Source: Candidatus Bathyarchaeota archaeon
Lineage (GTDB): Archaea > Thermoproteota > Bathyarchaeia > RBG-16-48-13 > JAGTRE01
Length of the DNA: 64,000 nucleotides
Reading direction: 5' to 3'
Assembly (NCBI GenBank): GCA_018396415.1
Contig: JAGTRE010000002.1
Location: forward strand, 96,824 to 160,823
Position 1 is the first letter of the stretch, and every line of letters begins with the position of its first letter. Shown one piece after another: positions 4,631 through 56,886 of this stretch. Made by a program: the position numbers and the translations under genes. A model generated the notes under the pieces. The model was not told the DNA's origin and did no database searches. It saw nothing but the letters and a program-made list of their open reading frames with translations.

Positions 4631-5263
4631 CTACTTACAAGTAATGACCCGACCCTGTTTCATTTGAGTGAGCAAACGCTCAGCGATCTCCAAATCATGG
4701 ATTGTATTAACATTTACAGCAAGCTCTTCCTTTTCAATTACGAGTATTTCTTGTTCCAACTCAGCCTCGTCAATTTTTTTCCCATCGATTACATTTATGC
4801 CAGAGGGAATAAGCACGTTCTTTCCTGCAAAGGCATGATTAATTTTAAAACCAAGCTTTCTGGAAATTTTCCTAGGAACCATTACGGCTAAGGCCGGCTT
4901 ACCGCAGTGCTCGTACGCCATAATAACGTTATTGATGATTTCACTTGTAACAAATGGGAGATCAGCTGAGATTACTAACACTGTTCCTAGTCCAAGCTTT
5001 TTAATTGCATATCGCGTGTCTGATACGTAATCTTCTCCAGGTGTTTCTAAGACCTCAACTGACAATTCTTTAACCATGCTTTTGGTGCGGGGTGTATGCT
5101 TACTCACTGCAACTATTATCCGATCTATTTTCTTAGCATCCTTTACCGCTTGTAAGACGTATCCAATGATTGGCTTGTTCCCAAGGTTGACCAGTGGCTT
5201 TTCGGTTTTGAGTTTCATTCGCGTACCCTTGCCGCCAGCCATTACTAAAGCAGTTATACCCAT
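4631..5263 (-). CDS. cobY: Adenosylcobinamide-phosphate guanylyltransferase (archaeal CobY-type NTP transferase)
   Basis: N-terminal LVMAGGKGTRM nucleotidyltransferase motif, about 200 aa, overlapping and co-oriented with cobS. Confidence 0.6.
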   Translation of the reverse strand: MGITALVMAGGKGTRMKLKTEKPLVNLGNKPIIGYVLQAVKDAKKIDRIIVAVSKHTPRTKSMVKELSVEVLETPGEDYVSDTRYAIKKLGLGTVLVISADLPFVTSEIINNVIMAYEHCGKPALAVMVPRKISRKLGFKINHAFAGKNVLIPSGINVIDGKKIDEAELEQEILVIEKEELAVNVNTIHDLEIAERLLTQMKQGRVITCK

Positions 5264-36090: not shown

Positions 36091-36235
36091 TGGCGGGCCC
36101 GGCGGGAATTGAACCCGCGACCCATCCCCAGGGAGAGGTGAATCATCATCCCTTCCGGGTGTCCTCCGAGCTCGGATAAAAGCCTCACCGAGAGATTTTC
36201 TCCCCGGTGCTCTATCCTAGCTGAGCTACGGGCCC
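36091..36235 (-). tRNA. Intron-containing tRNA (about 70-nt intervening sequence); anticodon not resolved
   Basis: Minus-strand RNA: GGGCCCG-TA-GCTC-AGCTAGGATA-GAGC ... GCGGG-TTCAATT-CCCGC-CGGGCCC-G-CCA. Acceptor, D-arm and T-arm are canonical and CCA is encoded. The anticodon region is interrupted by about 70 nt containing hairpins; exon junctions could not be fixed by eye. Confidence 0.6.
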
Positions 36236-36270: not shown

Positions 36271-36462
36271 TAACCCTGGTGGGGGGTATGGCGCCCCTCG
36301 GCAAGGGTGAGATTTCCTCTGACCCTTTTGGCCGGGATTTGAATTCCCGAGCTAACGCTTGTTGCTAGCGTTAAGCTTCCCGGGTCGTGCGGGCGAGTCG
36401 GCATCCAAGGAATTACCCCCCGGATCCAGCCGCACATACTAGACCGGACTATACTACCAGGG
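36271..36462 (-). ncRNA. tRNA-like locus (about 190 nt) that would require 2-3 introns: tRNA 5' acceptor+D-arm, split T-arm, distant 3' acceptor strand
   Basis: Minus-strand RNA begins GCCCTGG-TA-GTAT-AGTCCGGTCTAGT (Asp/Glu/Gly-type D-arm). Contains TGCGG...CCGCA (possible anticodon stem) and CCGGG...[35 nt]...TTCAAAT-CCCGG (T-arm only if an intron sits at 53/54). It ends ...CCAGGGT, complementary to the 5' acceptor with a G1-U72 wobble. Long-range G6TA/TAC6 pairing also present. Confidence 0.25.
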
Positions 36463-36581
36463 CAATGACTCCTAAAAGCCCTATCAATCGTTTTTATTTA
36501 AAACTTTCTTAAACTAATTTGACGCGCCCCTTATAGGACTGAATATAATAAATTTAGGAGACATGTTTCGGATCTTAGCGA

Positions 36582-37343
36582 TTATATTCTTTCGAGCTTT
36601 GGCTTTACTTGTAGCACGATTTCAGTAGGGCAATCTGAAGGAATGTCGATTGTCTTCTTCCACTCTTCCCCAACGGCAATTAACGCGAATATCCCTGCCA
36701 CTTCAGCCTTTGACTTAGTAACAAGGTTTATGAGAGCCCGCTGAGTTTCACCACTTCGAATTATATCATCAACAATTAGGACACTGTCTCCTTTTTTAAT
36801 CGTCCCCTTTGGAATGTACAACGCCATCATTATCGCAGAATTACTGGGAATGTAGGTTTCCTCAGTAAAGTCATGAACCCCAACTTCTTTAGTTTTCTTA
36901 GCGATTACTAAGTCGACGCCCAGCGCTGCTGAGACAGTTGTAGCCAAGGGAATCCCATCGACAGCCGCGGTCATAACCTTTGTAATCCTATGACCAGCAA
37001 ACTTGGAGAGAGCATGCTGTGCTGCTTGATTTAATAATGAGAGGTCGCAAATGATTGAGGTATTATCAAAATATCCAAACTCGTCAAATCTGATTCGTCC
37101 TCGCAGTTCCTCCTCCAAGCTGATCATCTTCTCTAAGGCACTCCAGATATTTTTAGCCCGCTTCGTCGTCGGCAAGACATGTCCCTTTACATATCGACTT
37201 AGAACCGTAACTGGAAGACTAGTTCGCTGTGCCAACTCTCGATACGTGTAATGTTTCTTTGCTGTCCGTAGGAGTTCAATTGTCATCAACCTGAACTTCA
37301 AGTCATGTAAGTGGGTTTCAGTACTCATGCTCATACTCTCCAT
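36582..37343 (-). CDS. HTH-domain + type I phosphoribosyltransferase-domain protein (PurR/GfcR-like putative regulator)
   Basis: N-terminal winged-helix region (YTYRELAQRTSLPVTVLSRYVKG) and PRTase PRPP-binding loop VLIVDDIIRSGET; 253 aa. Confidence 0.6.
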   Translation of the reverse strand: MESMSMSTETHLHDLKFRLMTIELLRTAKKHYTYRELAQRTSLPVTVLSRYVKGHVLPTTKRAKNIWSALEKMISLEEELRGRIRFDEFGYFDNTSIICDLSLLNQAAQHALSKFAGHRITKVMTAAVDGIPLATTVSAALGVDLVIAKKTKEVGVHDFTEETYIPSNSAIMMALYIPKGTIKKGDSVLIVDDIIRSGETQRALINLVTKSKAEVAGIFALIAVGEEWKKTIDIPSDCPTEIVLQVKPKLERI

Positions 37344-37470
37344 CCAATTAACAGATTACTGTAAATTTACTAATTAGGCATTCTCATTTTCTTCAAGATT
37401 ATTTATGCATTCTGATTGAGTACAGGCGAAAACTCCATTAAGCGGATTCTTCTCTTGAGACTTTTCAGAT

Positions 37471-37563
37471 GGGCCCGTGGCCTAGTTGGATAAGGCGTCG
37501 GCCTTCGGACATTTCGATTTGGAAGAGAGCCGGAGATCGAGGGTTCAAATCCCTCCGGGCCCG
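37471..37563 (+). tRNA. tRNA-Arg (anticodon TCG) with a 19-nt intron at the canonical 37/38 position
   Basis: GGGCCCG-TG-GCC-TAGTTGGATAA-GGC-G-TCGGC-CTTCGG[ACATTTCGATTTGGAAGAG]A-GCCGG-AGATC-GAGGG-TTCAAAT-CCCTC-CGGGCCC-G; CCA not encoded. Confidence 0.75.
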
Positions 37564-37947
37564 CTATAGTTAGAGACGCAAATATTAAGCGATGGTACAA
37601 AACCTTGCCCTAACAGCCCCGTTAGGGTTGAGGTATTTTCTTTCTACCTCATTCACGTAATCGATGAAGTTGTAACCTCTCTTTTCTCTATACTTTAAAT
37701 TTAGTTTGGGGTAGTTTTTAGAATTTATCTCAGGAATATAAAACGCTCTAGAGCTGGGGCTAAGGCATTGTTCGTTCTTTCCATTCTATTCCAAACGGTC
37801 ATCTAAAACCTCTAATCTCCGCGCCCATTCTTTGAGAAACGCGCTTGCTTGGGATATTCCTTTATTCAAATGCCTGCGACGCGTTAATTCATAAGAATTT
37901 ATCCGGGCAAAATTTATATCGTGGGCTTTTTGTCTTCTCCATTGGTT

Positions 37948-38147
37948 CCCGCGGTAGCTCAGCTTGGTAGAGCTTCCGAGTCCGCCTCCCCTAAAGGACG
38001 GACGGAGATGCTGTAGACGTGTGCCACGAGCACGCGTCATTTAGCCTACTAAGCAGACACCGGAGTGTCGCCGGAGAATAGTGGAAAATTCCCCTATTCG
38101 GCGAATTCAAAGCCGAGAAACCTCGGTGAAATTCCGGCCCGCGGGAC
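37948..38147 (+). ncRNA. Second tRNA-like locus (about 200 nt): canonical 5' acceptor+D-arm and a matching 3' acceptor strand with encoded CCA, separated by about 150 nt
   Basis: CCCGCGG-TA-GCTC-AGCTTGGTA-GAGC at 37948 onward; ...CCGCGGG-A-CCA at 38138-38147. Interior has a stem-loop CGGC-GAATTCAAA-GCCG resembling the T-arm-like element of locus 36271-36462, and CGGAG repeats. Could be a multi-intron tRNA or another ncRNA. Confidence 0.25.
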
Positions 38148-38233
38148 CAAACTCCTTTAACATTAGTTGGTTGGATTTTTTAGAGCTAAAATTACTTAGT
38201 TGATACGAAATAACGAAGATTTTAGGCTCAAAG

Positions 38234-38240
38234 TTATAAA
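38234..38240 (+). promoter_or_regulatory. TATA box (TTATAAA) about 40 nt upstream of the histone start codon
   Basis: AAGTTATAAAGG followed by an A-rich stretch and ATG at 38278. Confidence 0.35.
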
Positions 38241-38277
38241 GGAGGAAATTAATGACATATAAGCAGGGATTATTCGT

Positions 38278-38499
38278 ATGCCATCTCCTGAAGATCTTTC
38301 AGTAGCAGCTGTACATCGCATAATTAAAAAATCGGGAGCTGAAAGAGTAGGGGATGACGCTGCTAGAGAGTTAGGTAACGCACTCGAGGAAATTGGTATT
38401 CGAATTGCTAGAGAAGCCCTTGATTACGCTGTTCATGCCGGTCGAAAAACGGTAAAGGCAGAAGACATTAAGATCGCTGCTAAAAAGATCGTTAGATAA
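38278..38499 (+). CDS. Archaeal histone (HMf-like histone-fold protein)
   Basis: 73 aa; [30 protein letters not shown]...[20 protein letters not shown] matches archaeal histone A/B throughout. Confidence 0.9.
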
Positions 38500-38640
38500 A
38501 CCGCCCTCACAATACATTTTCTTTCCAGAAAACTTAGAAAAACAGACGAAAACTATGGTATGCCCATGAGAGTCGCTGTCAAATCAGAGACATATACAAC
38601 AAATAGAGTATTTATAAAATGGCTCCATGGCCTCGATCTC

Positions 38641-39693
38641 TTATATGTTAAGGTCCCCTGACCACGCAGACACTTTTTCTTCAATTTCATCCGGCCTAAG
38701 CAAGCCGTTTTCGGTGATTATTAGCTTAATGAGATCCGGAGGAGTGATGTCAAACGCTGGATTTAATGCTGGCACTCCACGATATGCGATACGCCTCCCC
38801 AAGAAGTGTGTGACCTCAAGCGGGCTACGCTCTTCAATTGTTATATCTGATAACTTCGTCTTCAAATCAAATGTAGAAAGGGGAGCTGCAACATAGAAAG
38901 GAACATGGTAATAGTTTGCAGTTATAGCAATCGACAAAGTACCAATCTTGTTGATAACATGACCAGTTTTTAAAATTCGATCTGCGCCAACGAGGACTTT
39001 ATTCACCATTCGCTTTTCCATTATGTAGCCGACCATCCCGTCTGTGATTAACGTAACTGGGATGCGCTCCCTTGCTAATTCGAATGTTGTAAGCCTAGCC
39101 CCTTGAAGCATCGGCCTTGTTTCGGTTACAATCACCTTAATTTTCTTGCCAGTTTGGAAGGCTGCCCTAATAACGCCCAGCGCGGTTCCATATCCCACGG
39201 TGCCAAATGCACCGGGATTGCAATGTGTGAGAATAACATCGCCGTCCTCTAAGAGAATCGCCCCATTTTGCCCAATAGCTTTATTTACCATGAGATCCGT
39301 ATCGGCGAGTTTCTGAGCCTCTTCGATAACTGCCCTTTTTACATCATTTACCGATCCTTCACACTGTCGGGCTATCTCTATAATCCGACTGATCGCCCAA
39401 AATAAATTAACCCCAGTTGGTCTAGTTGATTTAAGGATATTTGCAGCTTTGGTAAGCTCGTTAAAAAGGCGCCTTCGCGTCTTTGCTGATGAATGCCACG
39501 CGGTTAAAGCCAGACCATAGGCAGCGGCAACTCCAATTAGTGGGGCACCACGAACTTGCATCTTCTTAATTGCAGTAGCCACATCTTTGGCAGAACGTAA
39601 TCGAAGGTAAATTAAACGGTTTGGAAGTTTCGATTGGTCAATCGTGACGACGACGCCATCTTTCCACCAGATTGTCCTCATACTTTTCCCCAT
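38641..39693 (-). CDS. eIF-2B alpha/beta/delta-family protein (methylthioribose-1-phosphate isomerase MtnA / ribose-1,5-bisphosphate isomerase family)
   Basis: TIWWKDGVVVTIDQSKLP...VRGAPLIGVAAAYGLAL N-terminal signature; 350 aa. Confidence 0.75.
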   Translation of the reverse strand: MGKSMRTIWWKDGVVVTIDQSKLPNRLIYLRLRSAKDVATAIKKMQVRGAPLIGVAAAYGLALTAWHSSAKTRRRLFNELTKAANILKSTRPTGVNLFWAISRIIEIARQCEGSVNDVKRAVIEEAQKLADTDLMVNKAIGQNGAILLEDGDVILTHCNPGAFGTVGYGTALGVIRAAFQTGKKIKVIVTETRPMLQGARLTTFELARERIPVTLITDGMVGYIMEKRMVNKVLVGADRILKTGHVINKIGTLSIAITANYYHVPFYVAAPLSTFDLKTKLSDITIEERSPLEVTHFLGRRIAYRGVPALNPAFDITPPDLIKLIITENGLLRPDEIEEKVSAWSGDLNI

Positions 39694-40184
39694 ACTTTCT
39701 CACCTACTTTTGCTACAATTTTTTGCAAAAGCTCAGCAAGCGTTCTAGATGTTTTTTCTAGCTCTGGAGTAAGTCCAGTTCCGAAGCTTGTGTCCTTCGG
39801 CTGGATAGCTAAAAGAATGACTTTGGCATTCGTCGTTTGTTTAACGTATTCAGCGAATATATTCAAGGGAAGAGTGTGAGTAGAGATTGCAAGCCCTTTG
39901 ATTTTATCAGGGGGGACTAAACGCGCTCTCCCAGGCGGAAGCTGGAGCAATGCAGCATCAATCATGATCACGTGCGTTGGGTGAAATTGTTGCACATCTC
40001 GGGTGAAACTTTCAGGAACAGTTTCACAATTAATTAACCTAACGGTTCGTGGTACTCTTCCCTTTAACTGATTAACTATGGCCACGCCAATTGAGTCATC
40101 TCGGCGAATAGGGCTTCCAATCCCAAGAATTACGAGGCGCTTCGCTCCTCTCAGCCATGACGCAAGTTCTCCTGCGATAGGCAA
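39678..40184 (-). CDS. Hydrogenase maturation protease-like (HycI/HybD/FrhD family)
   Basis: LVILGIGSPIRRDDSIGV matches the GxGNxxxxDDGxG family motif; 168 aa; overlaps the downstream eIF-2B-family gene. Confidence 0.6.
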   Translation of the reverse strand: MPIAGELASWLRGAKRLVILGIGSPIRRDDSIGVAIVNQLKGRVPRTVRLINCETVPESFTRDVQQFHPTHVIMIDAALLQLPPGRARLVPPDKIKGLAISTHTLPLNIFAEYVKQTTNAKVILLAIQPKDTSFGTGLTPELEKTSRTLAELLQKIVAKVGEKVWGKV

Positions 40185-40242
40185 ACTCGATTCTCCTCAA
40201 AACCTAACCTTTATTGGAGAAACGTTATAATACTTGTAGACG

Positions 40243-40779
40243 GTGTTAACGTTGGCTCTACAAATCGAGGCGATTTATGTTGAAGGAAAACTAATCGTTT
40301 CCTCATCGGAAGCAGTTTCATCTCTAGAGCAAAGAGGCTATGGCACAAAGGAAGAAAAAACGGGTTTAATTCTTTCACCCACTGAAGCCCTCTACTTACT
40401 TGGTGACAAGAAACTCCGTGTAGTTGACAAAGATAGTGGCATTGAACAAGATTTTCCAACGCTCCTTGGAAAAATACGTACAATTGATCCTGAAATTTGG
40501 ATAAGATATCTGATTTACAGAGATCTTAGAGATCGAGGTTACGTTGTCCGCGAAGGCTTTGGTCTCGGAGTTGACTTCCGAGTATACGAACGGGGGCAAT
40601 ACGGGGAAGAAGCAGCCAAATACATTGTATTTGGGATTTCAGAAGGGACTCCAATTCCTGTTGGGAAAATTGTTGAACTCCTAAGATACGTCCAAAGTTT
40701 GAAACGTGAACTCGTACTCGCAGTTATCGACCGACGGGGAGAGATTGTGTATTACTCTGTCTCACAATTGACATTCTAG
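40243..40779 (+). CDS. endA: tRNA-splicing endonuclease EndA (short, about 178-aa form)
   Basis: Catalytic-domain block RDLRDRGYVVREGFGLGVDFRVYERG with conserved Tyr/His/Lys context. Confidence 0.85.
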   Translation: MLTLALQIEAIYVEGKLIVSSSEAVSSLEQRGYGTKEEKTGLILSPTEALYLLGDKKLRVVDKDSGIEQDFPTLLGKIRTIDPEIWIRYLIYRDLRDRGYVVREGFGLGVDFRVYERGQYGEEAAKYIVFGISEGTPIPVGKIVELLRYVQSLKRELVLAVIDRRGEIVYYSVSQLTF

Positions 40780-40806
40780 TAACAATTTGGATCCAAAAAA
40801 GGATAA

Positions 40807-42117
40807 TTATTTGCCGCAACTTAACATTTGTATCAACTCATCAACAGAAATCTCTCTTTCTTCTCGAGTTTCCATCACTTTCAATCTAAACTTCCCTTTT
40901 TGAATTTCTTCTGGACCAATGATAAGCACATATGGAATTCCTTTAGAATCAGCGTATTCGAGTTGCTTTGTCAGCCGCCTTCCCATAAGGTCGACCTCAG
41001 TTGAAATCCCAGCTTCCCTAGTTCGTCTGGCAATTGCCAAGGCATCCTTATGTAAACTTTCATCAACCGTGGAGATGAATAACTTCACCAAGGTCTTTGG
41101 CTGATTAAACATTCCCTCGTCTTCCATTATCTCAACAATCCGCTCAATACCAATTGATATTCCGGTCGCAGGCGAAGGCGCGCCACCATAAAGTGCGATC
41201 AAATTATCGTATCGCCCGCCCCCAGCAACGCTCCCTACATTTTTCTTGGCTTGAACATTAATTTCATATATGGGTCCAGTGTAGTAATCTAAACCCCGCA
41301 CTAAGCTAAAATCAACGATAAATTTACCTGCAATTGCATAGTCGGTAGCTTTTTCAAGTATTTCGTCAAGCTCACTCAATCCCTCTTCTGCAATTTTAAT
41401 TCCGCCCAAAAGTTTTCTTGCCTTTTCAGGGATTTCGTTAACACCCTTCAGTGAGACGTATTCCAGTAGCATTTCACTAGACTCCTCAGATATGCCACGC
41501 TTTAAAAGTTCCTTTTTAACTCCATCTAATCCTATTTTATCTAGTTTATCAAACGCACGAAATACACCAAATGCCTTGGACTCCGGGATGCCAGCTAATC
41601 GGACAAACCCGTCTAGAACTTTCCGATTGCTAAGCCTAAGCGTGAAATTCGTAAAACCTAAAGCCTTTAGGCAGTCTGCTGCCACAGCAAGTACCTCGAC
41701 ATCAGCGTCCATCTTACTACTGCCAACCACATCCGCGTCCGCTTGCCAAAACTCGCGAAAACGCCCGCTTTGAGGTTCCTCATAGCGCCAAACCCGCGAG
41801 ATACAATATCGCTTGAATGGTTTGGGAATTGCCGGATTGCTGGCCACTAACCGTGCCAGGGGAACCGTCAAATCAAATCTCAAGCCAAGCAACCGGCCAC
41901 CACGATCTTCGAATTTATAGATTTGTTCTCGGATTTCTTCACCGCACTTTGCAGTTAAAACATCCCACTGCTCAAAAGCTGGGGTTTCAATTTCGTCAAA
42001 ACCATAGTTCTCAAAAACCTTACGAATTTTCTCCATAACAAACCGACGCTTAATCATTTCTTTCGGCATAAAGTCTCGAGTTCCGCGAGGGCGTCCAATC
42101 TTTTTTCCTTTAAACAT
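40807..42117 (-). CDS. hisS: Histidyl-tRNA synthetase
   Basis: Class II motifs, HisRS N-terminus RGTRDFMP, C-terminal anticodon-binding domain; 436 aa. Confidence 0.9.
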   Translation of the reverse strand: MFKGKKIGRPRGTRDFMPKEMIKRRFVMEKIRKVFENYGFDEIETPAFEQWDVLTAKCGEEIREQIYKFEDRGGRLLGLRFDLTVPLARLVASNPAIPKPFKRYCISRVWRYEEPQSGRFREFWQADADVVGSSKMDADVEVLAVAADCLKALGFTNFTLRLSNRKVLDGFVRLAGIPESKAFGVFRAFDKLDKIGLDGVKKELLKRGISEESSEMLLEYVSLKGVNEIPEKARKLLGGIKIAEEGLSELDEILEKATDYAIAGKFIVDFSLVRGLDYYTGPIYEINVQAKKNVGSVAGGGRYDNLIALYGGAPSPATGISIGIERIVEIMEDEGMFNQPKTLVKLFISTVDESLHKDALAIARRTREAGISTEVDLMGRRLTKQLEYADSKGIPYVLIIGPEEIQKGKFRLKVMETREEREISVDELIQMLSCGK

Positions 42118-42189: not shown

Positions 42190-42299
42190 TGGCGGGCCTG
42201 ACGGGATTTGAACCCGCGACCTACAGCTTTCCCCAGAGGCTATAGGAGGCTCGGCTGATCTGGTCATCTGCCGCGCTGTCCAAACTGCGCCACAGGCCC
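42190..42299 (-). tRNA. Intron-containing tRNA (about 32-34 nt extra); anticodon not resolved, intron probably non-canonical
   Basis: Minus-strand RNA GGGCCTG-TG-GCGC-AGTTTGGACA-GCGC-G-...-AGGTC-GCGGG-TTCAAAT-CCCGT-CAGGCCC-G-CCA. Intervening region contains hairpin GGCAGAT-GACCAG-ATCAGCC; no U33-containing loop is found at a canonical position. Confidence 0.55.
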
Positions 42300-42630
42300 C
42301 AGTTTAATCGATAACTTAGATATTCCTTAAACTTTCTGTTTGACAAACTTATAGTTGAATAAACTTGGCACGTCTATAGGCTCATTAGCCCGTTTTAGCC
42401 GACCTTTCGAACTTAGACTCTGTAATTGCCTCCTCCTGCCAACGCGAACGCCACATTTTCAAATTCAGCTGTTCACATACCCTTCCGCCATGAGCTCCCA
42501 GAATCGTATCATTCATTAACAGATATTGTCATAAATGCACTGAGCAATAGTAAACCTTCGATAAGGCATTGGATATTAAGGTCCATTAAGTAAAGACTTA
42601 AGTTTAACAAAAAAATTCGATAAACTAAGG

Positions 42631-42764
42631 CGGGGGTACCCGAGCCAGGTCTATGTCGCGGTCCAGAAGCCGGACGGCTTGAGGGGGCGGTAGCTAGACA
42701 CTGCCCAAACTTAAGATCCGCTGGCGAAGGCCTTCGTGGGTTCGAATCCCACCCCCCGCACCAC
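42631..42764 (+). tRNA. tRNA-Leu (anticodon TAA) with a 47-nt intron inside the 5' strand of the anticodon stem (near position 30/31, non-canonical)
   Basis: GCGGGGG...CCCCCGC-A-CCA acceptor; T-arm GTGGG-TTCGAAT-CCCAC; long variable arm. Exon 1 ends ...GTCGCGG (42662); exon 2 resumes A-CTTAAGA-TCCGC (42710 onward), giving stem GCGGA/TCCGC and loop CTTAAGA. Intron TCCAGAAGCC...TGCCCAA spans 42663-42709. Confidence 0.8.
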
Positions 42765-45291: not shown

Positions 45292-45339
45292 CACAGCAAA
45301 AGCATTCGCAAGAAAAAGTTTCCGTACCTATTGAATGGA

Positions 45340-45482
45340 GGCCGCGGTCGGGATTTGAACCCGAGCGACCGTCCCATTCCTTTAATCAATTAATGGAATG
45401 GGTGTCCGGCTCCATTGACCAGGATAGAGGCTACGCATTAATCCTTCAGGCCGGTAGGCTAACCAGACTACCTCACCGCGGC
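45340..45482 (-). tRNA. tRNA with two introns (about 32 nt in the anticodon loop, about 36 nt hairpin in the variable region); anticodon reads GAA (Phe-like) but discriminator is C
   Basis: Minus-strand RNA GCCGCGG-TG-AGGT-AGTCTGGTTAG-CCTA-CCGGC-CTGAAG[32 nt]A-GCCGG-[CCCATTCC-ATTAATTGATTAAA-GGAATGGG hairpin]-TCGGG-TTCAAAT-CCCGA-CCGCGGC-C; 143 nt. Confidence 0.5.
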
Positions 45483-45584
45483 CAACTTTTGCCATCCTTA
45501 CAACCATCACTTTTTCATTAAGTTTTCTTTAAAGGTTGTTGGACAACTAACCTTAGGGAATTTGGAAGATTGAAGTATGAGCCC

Positions 45585-50451: not shown

Positions 50452-50545
50452 TGGTGGACCGGGCGGGATTCGAACCCGCGACCCCTTGGTCTTTTGAGAA
50501 AGCCCATGCAAACCAAGTGCTCATACCGAGCTGAGCTACCGGCCC
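50452..50545 (-). tRNA. tRNA-Ala (anticodon TGC) with a 16-nt intron at/near 37/38; G3-U70 present
   Basis: Minus-strand RNA GGGCCGG-TA-GCTC-AGCTCGGTAT-GAGC-A-CTTGG-TTTGCA[TGGGCTTTCTCAAAAG]A-CCAAG-GGGTC-GCGGG-TTCGAAT-CCCGC-CCGGTCC-A-CCA. Confidence 0.85.
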
Positions 50546-56744: not shown

Positions 56745-56886
56745 AGCGGGGTGGGGTAGCAAGAGAGGACAATGAAGTCCCTCTTGCCGAACCAGGTTTA
56801 ATGAGTACTTGTAGTGAACAAGCCTCGAATTCCCCGCAGGGCTCATAACCCTGAGATCGGTGGTTCAAATCCACCCCCCGCTACCA
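56745..56886 (+). tRNA. Initiator tRNA-Met (anticodon CAT) with about 62 nt of intervening sequence inside the D-loop (non-canonical)
   Basis: A1-U72 (AGCGGGG.../...CCCCGCT-A-CCA); anticodon arm CAGGG-CTCATAA-CCCTG with three G-C pairs (initiator hallmark); T-arm GGTGG-TTCAAAT-CCACC. D-stem GGGG/CCCC encloses TAGC + about 62 extra nt with hairpins AAGAGAGGA/TCCCTCTT and CTTG-TAGTGAA-CAAG. Confidence 0.7.

Follow-up and report, generated by a model that had tools for sequence, protein, structure and literature searches.

Probable tRNA-Asp and tRNA-Tyr genes with three and four bulge-helix-bulge introns in Bathyarchaeia

Gene structure of the two loci

Two loci whose ends resemble those of transfer RNA (tRNA) genes, locus A on the minus strand and locus B on the plus strand, were studied in a 64-kilobase (kb) window from Candidatus Bathyarchaeota, by which the whole stretch of DNA analysed is meant. 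The window has a G+C content of 43.2%, and the stretches with the two loci have 55–57%. In our opinion, both loci are very probably functional, single-transcript tRNA genes with several introns of the bulge-helix-bulge (BHB) type, three in tRNA-Asp(GUC) at locus A and four in tRNA-Tyr(GUA) at locus B. The BHB model applied here consists of two 3-nucleotide (nt) bulges on opposite strands around a helix of 4 base pairs (bp), with the cut after the second bulge nucleotide; a manual check showed that it fits exactly the canonical intron of the tRNA-Arg(UCG) gene located at 37471–37563.

The tRNA-Asp(GUC) gene (36289–36463, minus strand), reconstructed by in-silico splicing and ARAGORN, is 175 nt long including an encoded CCA and corresponds to a predicted mature tRNA of 78 nt. 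Its 5' end at 36463 reads GCCCTGG-TA-GTAT..., which is a normal acceptor strand followed by a D-arm. Exon 1 (36427–36463, positions 1–34) contains the acceptor 5' strand, the D-arm, the 5' strand of the anticodon stem and C32, U33 and G34, and is separated by intron 1 (36397–36426, 30 nt, site 34/35 within the anticodon) from exon 2 (36379–36396, positions 35–53). Intron 2 (36344–36378, 35 nt, site 53/54) precedes exon 3 (36329–36343, positions 54–68), consisting of the T-loop, the T-stem 3' strand and the CCA of the acceptor 3' strand, and intron 3 (36297–36328, 32 nt, site 68/69) lies in the acceptor stem before exon 4 (36289–36296), which is GGGCGCCA and supplies positions 69–73 plus CCA. 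The 3' acceptor strand is therefore split by an intron (CCA...GGGC) and followed by G73 and the encoded CCA, with which the gene ends at 36289. All three introns form strict hBHBh' motifs with central helices of 4 bp; the outer and inner helices have 3 and 10 bp in intron 1, 2 and 4 bp in intron 2, where the inner helix resumes beyond a 1-nt bulge, and 2 and 6 bp in intron 3. A reading of locus A as tRNA-Glu(CUC), interrupted at 33/34, was considered too and rejected, since the BHB register fits only at 34/35 and gives the anticodon GUC of tRNA-Asp, in agreement with G73.

The initial annotation had placed the 3' end of locus A at CCAGGGT (36271–36277, minus strand), which is 18 nt away from the real GGGCGCCA end at 36296–36289. 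This heptamer belongs to the 53-nt spacer between tRNA-Asp and tRNA-Lys. A tRNA-Asp ending there could appeal to the fact that CCAGGGT can pair, through one G-U among other pairs, with the 5' acceptor strand, but no BHB would connect such an end to the T-arm, and the resulting tRNA would carry G1-U72 and U73 and lack CCA, whereas a perfect BHB is found for the GGGCGCCA end, which recurs in the orthologues. CCAGGGT is not found in the orthologue L016 (L-numbers designate loci or contigs of Bathyarchaeia relatives and metagenomes), where the trailer is TTTTGAACTC. The heptamer is outside the gene and represents either a chance occurrence or a remnant.

The tRNA-Tyr(GUA) gene (37948–38149, plus strand) occupies 202 nt including the encoded CCA and would yield a mature tRNA of 77 nt with C1-G72 and A73. 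It begins at 37948 with CCCGCGG-TA-GCTC... and ends at 38149 with CCGCGGG-A-CCA. Exon 1 (37948–37978, 31 nt, positions 1–30) is followed by intron 1 (37979–38009, 31 nt, site 30/31), a hBHBh' motif with 4 central pairs, including one G-U, 2 outer and 5 inner pairs. Exon 2 (38010–38016) has only 7 nt, GCTGTAG, covers positions 31–37 and holds the anticodon; the subsequent intron 2 (38017–38058, 42 nt) occupies the canonical site 37/38 and has a relaxed BHB with 4 central bp and without an intron-side helix. After exon 3 (38059–38074, 16 nt, positions 38–53) comes intron 3 (38075–38105, 31 nt, site 53/54) with 4 central and 6 inner pairs and a U-U mismatch interrupting the exon-side helix. Exon 4 (38106–38111), the 6-nt sequence TTCAAA of the T-loop (positions 54–59), is divided by intron 4 (38112–38132, 21 nt, site 59/60; 4 central and 5 inner pairs) from exon 5 (38133–38149, 17 nt, positions 60–76 including CCA).

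After splicing in silico, both products are canonical cloverleaves, recognised by ARAGORN as tRNA-Asp(gtc) and tRNA-Tyr(gta), with U8, G18G19, a TTCAAAT T-loop and the encoded CCA. The former carries G73 and the latter C1-G72 and A73, which we take to be archaeal identity elements of these two tRNAs. The central helix has all four pairs in each of the seven introns, and in six of them it is combined with 3-nt bulges and an intron-side helix of 4–10 bp. Upstream of position 1, the TATA-like boxes TTTAAATA (36495–36502, minus strand, at a distance of 32–39 nt from tRNA-Asp) and TTTATAT (37913–37919, plus strand, 29–35 nt from tRNA-Tyr) were found, and the A+T fraction upstream of tRNA-Tyr reaches its maximum, 0.84–0.92, at −32 to −29 in 91 orthologues. 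These A+T-rich boxes of both genes may be read as TATA boxes.

Much of what the initial annotation had recognised is indeed present, namely the starts with acceptor strand and D-arm, TGCGG/CCGCA in locus A, the T-arm split at 53/54 (CCGGG...TTCAAAT-CCCGG) and CCGCGGG-A-CCA in locus B, and the BHB motifs looked for at the junctions were found for all seven introns. Its count of three introns holds for tRNA-Asp, whereas tRNA-Tyr has four; among the sites implied for locus B, 37/38, 53/54 and 59/60 are correct, and 22/23 is really 30/31. A stem-loop thought to be shared by both loci, CGGG/CGGC-(G)AATTCAAA-, turned out to be the 3' end of the 53/54 intron, i.e., a strand of the BHB central helix and the bulge AA, followed by the T-loop.

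Searches and controls

When ARAGORN was applied to the raw window, it made no call at the unspliced locus A or B, though tRNAs were called nearby. In the BHB-chain search, BHB candidates were enumerated, chains of up to four were spliced, and the products were submitted to ARAGORN with a canonical intron allowed. This unbiased procedure led to tRNA-Asp (score 125.7) and tRNA-Tyr (score 114.7, with the 37/38 intron left in), exactly the proposed solutions, and found no tRNA in dinucleotide-preserving shuffles of both loci (0/60 and then 0/500). The same search produced a junk tRNA call with a score of 102.6 in the relative L013, so scores near 100 are untrustworthy; loci A and B score well above this level.

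No match over locus A or B was obtained with 4227 Rfam families, either at the gathering thresholds or at E ≤ 10, and homology to signal recognition particle RNA, ribonuclease P RNA or another Rfam family, named in the initial annotation as an argument against tRNA genes, was thus not detected. A scan of G+C islands for structured RNAs gave no discrimination in this window of 43% G+C.

Relatives of the tRNA-Asp gene were taken from contigs with phosphoribosyltransferase or EndA genes 51–80% identical to those of the window. A scan of genome contigs with the IF-2B-family protein gave two useful relatives, neither with a syntenic tRNA-Tyr or tRNA-Asp. The tRNA-Tyr set originates from one scan of metagenome contigs with an exon-1 pattern, which provided 120 loci and, from these, 96 unique genes resolved by spliced alignment plus BHB refinement. 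The homologous loci whose search had been recommended therefore exist as 96 unique tRNA-Tyr genes and seven unique tRNA-Asp orthologues.

Comparative evidence

The spliced products of all 96 tRNA-Tyr genes were called tRNA-Tyr by ARAGORN (95 with GTA and one with ATA; scores 116.6–124.8). One intron was found in 9 genes, two in 59, three in 7 and four in 21. The site 37/38 is occupied exactly in 94 genes, 30/31 in 86, 53/54 in 24 and 59/60 in 22. In the one-intron genes, the intron was at 37/38 in those inspected, but the aligner puts that of one gene elsewhere; L016, for example, has the 37/38 intron only, and the other three junctions are uninterrupted there. The two-intron genes nearly always combine 30/31 with 37/38, L118 with 37/38 and 59/60 being different, and all 21 four-intron genes use the same four sites as the window gene. 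The introns at 53/54 and 59/60 occur singly or jointly. This nested intron content suggests a stepwise gain of introns upon an old canonical one. Four-intron genes are known in both acceptor types, CCCGCGG and CGGGCGG. Apparent five-intron structures in L091, L034, L128 and L028 were rejected, as the spliced aligner had strayed into the neighbouring tRNA-Asp or flanking DNA.

The tRNA-Tyr exons are near-invariant over the 96 diverged orthologues, and the introns diverge freely, differing in sequence as well as in length (20–46, 42–76, 22–38 and 20–28 nt for introns 1–4). Exon 2, GCTGTAG, is identical in 28/28 genes with three or four introns and is joined to its neighbour exons in L016. Exon 4, TTCAAA, is unchanged in 21/21 four-intron genes, and TTCAAAT is contiguous in those three-intron genes that are without either the 53/54 or the 59/60 intron.

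The last observation bears on the possibility that tRNA-Tyr has three introns, one of them a large T-arm intron. The extreme shortness of a 6-nt exon may be put forward in its favour, but a single T-arm intron would leave a TGAAATT T-loop devoid of U54, U55 and C56, TTCAAA would be unexpectedly invariant and, where either intron is absent, contiguous with the neighbour exons, and each of the introns at 53/54 and 59/60 has its own covarying BHB. Taken together with the CCAGGGT end of tRNA-Asp discussed above, this alternative gene structure is most unlikely.

Covariation was studied on tRNA-Tyr alone. When the 21 four-intron genes are aligned on their splice sites, 96.0% of the cells in BHB helices are paired, compared with 35–40% when the partner is slid by 1–3 columns; the sequences are related, so that independent events are fewer than the cells counted, but the slid controls retain this kinship and still collapse. 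Fourteen pairs are altered on both sides, and the observed score was attained in 0/500 shuffles.

The seven tRNA-Asp orthologues have 0, 1, 1, 1, 2, 3 and 3 introns. The intronless gene of L014 differs by two mismatches from the predicted spliced product. The Asp intron sites are filled elsewhere by different sequences with 4/4 central helices, namely 34/35 in L133, 53/54 in L091 and 68/69 in L016 and L128; the ends of the 68/69 introns of L016 and L128 are similar to those of the window tRNA-Asp.

Every nucleotide of both loci thus belongs to a tRNA exon or a BHB intron, and the same mature sequences are obtained from orthologues in which some or all of the introns are absent, in accordance with the earlier idea of multi-intron tRNAs. 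The other idea expressed at that time, a hitherto unrecognised type of non-coding RNA with a length of about 200 nt and tRNA-like termini, agrees with the absence of an Rfam match even at E ≤ 10 and with the unusual stability of the locus B precursor (z = −6.76). It is rejected by the full accounting of the internal sequence and by the orthologues, whose length changes from 76 to about 225 nt through introns present or absent at fixed tRNA positions, unlike that of a conserved long non-coding RNA, and we consider it extremely improbable.

Decaying tRNA pseudogenes with intron-like insertions would explain the missing calls of Rfam and ARAGORN and the lengths of 175 and 202 nt. At the same time, the spliced exons are perfectly canonical and, in the case of tRNA-Tyr, near-invariant among orthologues, the insertions hold the BHB geometry by compensatory changes, and no other tRNA-Tyr or tRNA-Asp was found within the 64-kb window, so that pseudogenes have very little probability. 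An assembly chimera or another artefact may be suspected in any metagenome-assembled genome (MAG), which is the source of the window. The tRNA-Tyr locus, however, shows no base difference among four assemblies, two from NCBI and two independent read-set assemblies from Logan, and the four-intron architecture recurs in 20 further distinct sequences, whose contig names point to at least nine metagenomes of the Joint Genome Institute (JGI); the probability of an artefact is practically negligible. Proteins of the window are identically encoded on contig JAWCKP010000001.1 (MAG GCA_038851825.1) and in three other assemblies.

Proposed splicing pathway and endonuclease

We infer transcription, cleavage, ligation and the order of splicing from the gene structure, BHB motifs, conservation and covariation described above. 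Transcription would start from the TATA-like box lying some 30 nt upstream. Together with flanking exon sequence, each intron would fold into two 3-nt bulges around a 4-bp helix, both bulges would be cut by the splicing endonuclease, and the exons would be joined by an RtcB-type ligase.

In tRNA-Tyr, the intron-side helices of introns 1 and 3 (5–6 bp) are complete in the primary transcript. For intron 2, a single exon-side pair is available before intron 1 is gone, and five or six are then contributed by the anticodon stem; intron 4 lacks an exon-side helix as long as intron 3 is in place and gains five pairs from the T-stem once intron 3 is removed. Since the exon-side helices of introns 2 and 4 await the removal of introns 1 and 3, the order of splicing, 1 before 2 and 3 before 4, is probably built into the structure. 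Such an order would prevent the release of the 7-nt and 6-nt exons as free oligonucleotides.

A gene of the EndA family (tRNA-intron lyase) is located at 40243–40779 on the plus strand, 2.1 kb from tRNA-Tyr. Its product matches Pfam PF01974 and PF02778 and TIGR00324 above the cut-off, and its best solved relatives are the enzymes of M. kandleri and M. jannaschii. The protein was aligned with three solved enzymes and the orthologues from L099, L018, L016, L019, L091, L128, L014 and L013. The catalytic histidine is replaced in the window protein and in 8/8 Bathyarchaeia orthologues (EEAAKY versus KEHSVY; EHS or EHA in solved enzymes), the position of the catalytic lysine is not conserved in these nine Bathyarchaeia sequences, and that of the tyrosine is retained in 9/9. 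The catalytic residues of the M. jannaschii enzyme are presumably His125 and Lys156. Because of the replaced histidine, the EndA-family protein probably serves as a structural (beta-like) subunit; a catalytic one would then be encoded outside the window. A tblastn search with this protein, which covered only small parts of the relatives' genomes, gave orthologues and no paralogue. A separate catalytic subunit would fit a heterotetrameric endonuclease, a type linked to non-canonical introns (PMC5829648).

The assignment of both loci as functional multi-intron tRNA genes is additionally favoured by the A+T-rich box at −32 to −29, by the EndA-family gene about 2 kb away and by the unusual stability of the locus B precursor (z = −6.76). 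Several points weigh against it. The expression and splicing of loci A and B are deduced from the DNA. The only EndA-family gene of the window is without the catalytic histidine, and no catalytic subunit was seen in the window. The 37/38 intron of tRNA-Tyr, the seventh of the set, has only the central helix and the anticodon stem, its intron-side helix being absent, and in the orthologue L014 this intron shows three of the four central pairs by a by-eye reading. Three of four central pairs are also found for the 53/54 intron of tRNA-Tyr in 15/24 orthologues. Finally, the stability of the locus A precursor barely exceeds that of shuffles (z = −2.17).

Pairing of the canonical tRNA-Tyr intron with the D-loop

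Intron 2 of tRNA-Tyr includes the block CTACTAAGC (38046–38054, plus strand), which is complementary to positions 15–22 of the D-loop and D-stem (37962–37970). The consensus of this block in 37/38 introns is tCAGCCTAyCAaGCgcACA, and the CAGCC core is present in 78/92 unique introns. The duplex between intron and D-loop has 9 bp, and 737 of 738 cells are paired in 82 unique genes (L014–L140). Position 17 covaries without exception (U:A in 58 genes and C:G in 24), both states are found within several groups of acceptor type and intron number, and the intron strand otherwise varies in a wobble-neutral manner only. The duplex is present in the structure that RNAfold gives for the window tRNA-Tyr precursor. 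It forms a pseudoknot with the anticodon stem and with the 37/38 BHB and thus acts either as a tertiary clamp or as an alternative fold.

The canonical tRNA-Tyr intron could tentatively be regarded as a built-in chaperone in a programmed folding pathway or, after excision, as an RNA acting in trans on tRNA-Tyr; taken together, these roles are possible rather than likely. As a chaperone, the block would clamp the D-loop, hold exon 1 and block premature tertiary folding between the D-loop and T-loop during the removal first of introns 1 and 3 and subsequently of 2 and 4, which would keep the 7-nt and 6-nt exons from being set free at any time. Either function, if true, would be a sequence-specific role for an archaeal tRNA intron beyond splicing, and the covarying duplex is a testable lead on the function of tRNA introns. 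The intron of Haloferax volcanii tRNA-Trp is a box C/D guide; it is likewise canonical and contains a conserved segment complementary to its own exon, targeting positions 34 and 39, whereas the tRNA-Tyr block targets positions 15–22 of the D-loop. No C/D boxes were seen by eye in the 37/38 intron of tRNA-Tyr, and a literature search for pairing between an intron and the D-loop in tRNA found no description.

Other tRNA genes and the neighbourhood

The two neighbours described in the initial annotation as ordinary intron-containing tRNA genes differ from each other. The tRNA-Arg(UCG) gene (37471–37563, plus strand) is indeed such a gene, the only ordinary one of the four, with one canonical 19-nt intron at 37509–37527 derived by hand; ARAGORN gives it an undetermined 4-base anticodon. 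The gene at 36091–36235 (minus strand) is, instead, a tRNA-Lys(UUU) with three introns at 36184–36203 (30/31), 36161–36176 (37/38) and 36124–36154 (43/44). The third of these has a relaxed BHB with 3/4 central pairs and a 5-bp intron-side helix, lies outside the strict finder and was placed by spliced alignment to an orthologous mature sequence. The tRNA-Lys gene starts 53 nt downstream of, and has the same orientation as, tRNA-Asp, with which it may be co-transcribed. In L014, the tRNA-Lys gene (4997–5136, minus strand) is interrupted by introns behind position 9 and within the anticodon stem, at sites that differ from those of the window tRNA-Lys.

Further tRNA genes of the window are tRNA-Arg(CCU) at 42190–42299 (minus strand, 2 introns), tRNA-Leu(UAA) at 42630–42763 (plus strand, 2 introns) and tRNA-His(GUG) with G-1 at 45336–45483 (minus strand, 2 introns), the last two missed by Rfam, tRNA-Ala(UGC) at 50452–50545 (minus strand, 1 non-canonical intron), mistyped as Pro by ARAGORN, and tRNA-Met(CAU) at 56745–56886 (plus strand, 2 D-arm introns), partial in Rfam, whose acceptor is initiator-like by our own reading. 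At least nine tRNA genes are consequently present in the window, and all nine resolved ones have introns. Another gene missed by Rfam, a tRNA-Leu(CAA) with three introns, was noticed in L013 (7407–7557, minus strand), a Bathyarchaeia MAG with 32% G+C.

The neighbourhood at 36582–42117 is kept in L014, L016, L018 and L019 and contains genes of a helix-turn-helix phosphoribosyltransferase, an IF-2B-family protein, the EndA-family protein and histidyl-tRNA synthetase, with tRNAs clustering alongside. The called phosphoribosyltransferase gene begins 5 codons later than the reading as an open reading frame of 253 amino acids. An archaeal histone gene (38278–38499) lies 129 nt downstream of tRNA-Tyr.

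Significance and comparison with known systems

The window has about 20 introns in its nine resolved tRNA genes, i.e., about 2.2 per gene in this small sample, while the record holder for tRNA introns has 71 in 46 genes, about 1.5 per gene (PMC8450103). Heavy tRNA intron load is in this way extended to Bathyarchaeia, an abundant uncultured lineage. Out of the nine window tRNAs, Rfam found five and ARAGORN two, both mistyped, and tRNA complements of MAGs are therefore likely to be under-called, which likely affects the conclusions on completeness and codon usage drawn from such MAGs.

Up to three introns in one tRNA gene have been published (PMC4033280, PMC8450103). This description fits tRNA-Asp, which is a further case within the known kind of multiple-intron tRNAs, and is exceeded by tRNA-Tyr and 20 further distinct orthologues. 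Neither four-intron tRNAs nor tRNA introns of Bathyarchaeia were found in literature searches, in which not all journals were covered, and it is probable that a four-intron tRNA gene has not been described previously. The known upper limit of tRNA fragmentation by cis-introns would thereby be raised from three to four. Exons of 6–7 nt constrain the endonuclease and ligase, demanding ordered splicing or a very tight coupling of cutting and joining. The 96 tRNA-Tyr genes with 1–4 introns at fixed sites represent a natural series for tests of intron gain and loss and, if the gain was indeed stepwise, a record of it.

Among the cases described so far, the multiple-intron tRNAs of Thermoproteales (Pyrobaculum, Thermofilum and Caldivirga), studied by Sugahara et al. 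in 2007/2008 and reviewed in PMC4033280 and PMC8450103, come closest. The initial annotation had pointed to this order, but the nearest species-level genomes and all named homologues of the intervening phosphoribosyltransferase belong to Candidatus Bathyarchaeia/Bathyarchaeota. Common features are BHB introns at canonical and non-canonical positions, including those of the 53/54 and 59/60 types, several introns per gene, the need to remove one adjacent intron before the next BHB forms, and differences in intron content between close relatives. In contrast to Thermoproteales, four introns are found in tRNA-Tyr, the host belongs to Bathyarchaeia, the exons are as short as 6–7 nt, and all nine resolved tRNAs of the window bear introns. 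Adjacent introns needing sequential removal are also considered in the description of tRNAscan-SE 2.0, a program with an iterative intron search, where the genes have two or three introns only (PMC8450103). The non-canonical tRNA introns of Thaumarchaeota (PMC8450103) are, like those described here, BHB introns at many positions that were missed by older tools.

In the nuclear tRNA-Ile(UAU) of the red alga Cyanidioschyzon merolae, the D-arm, the 37/38 site and the T-loop are each interrupted by a hBHBh' intron, three in all (PMC3728597, PMC9602550), and it was experimentally shown that the outer introns are removed before the 37/38 intron (PMC3728597). This verified order parallels that of tRNA-Tyr, which is deduced from the helices that can form; C. 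merolae is a eukaryote with three introns at most, compared with the four of tRNA-Tyr. Split and tri-split tRNAs of Nanoarchaeum equitans and Caldivirga maquilingensis (PMC4033280) are likewise fragmented and joined through BHB-like structures by the same endonuclease, but their pieces are separate genes joined in trans, whereas the exons considered here lie collinearly within a single locus of 175 or 202 nt. Summarizing these comparisons, it may be concluded that the mechanism is the known BHB one and that the new features are the four introns of tRNA-Tyr, its exons of 6–7 nt and the different lineage of the host.

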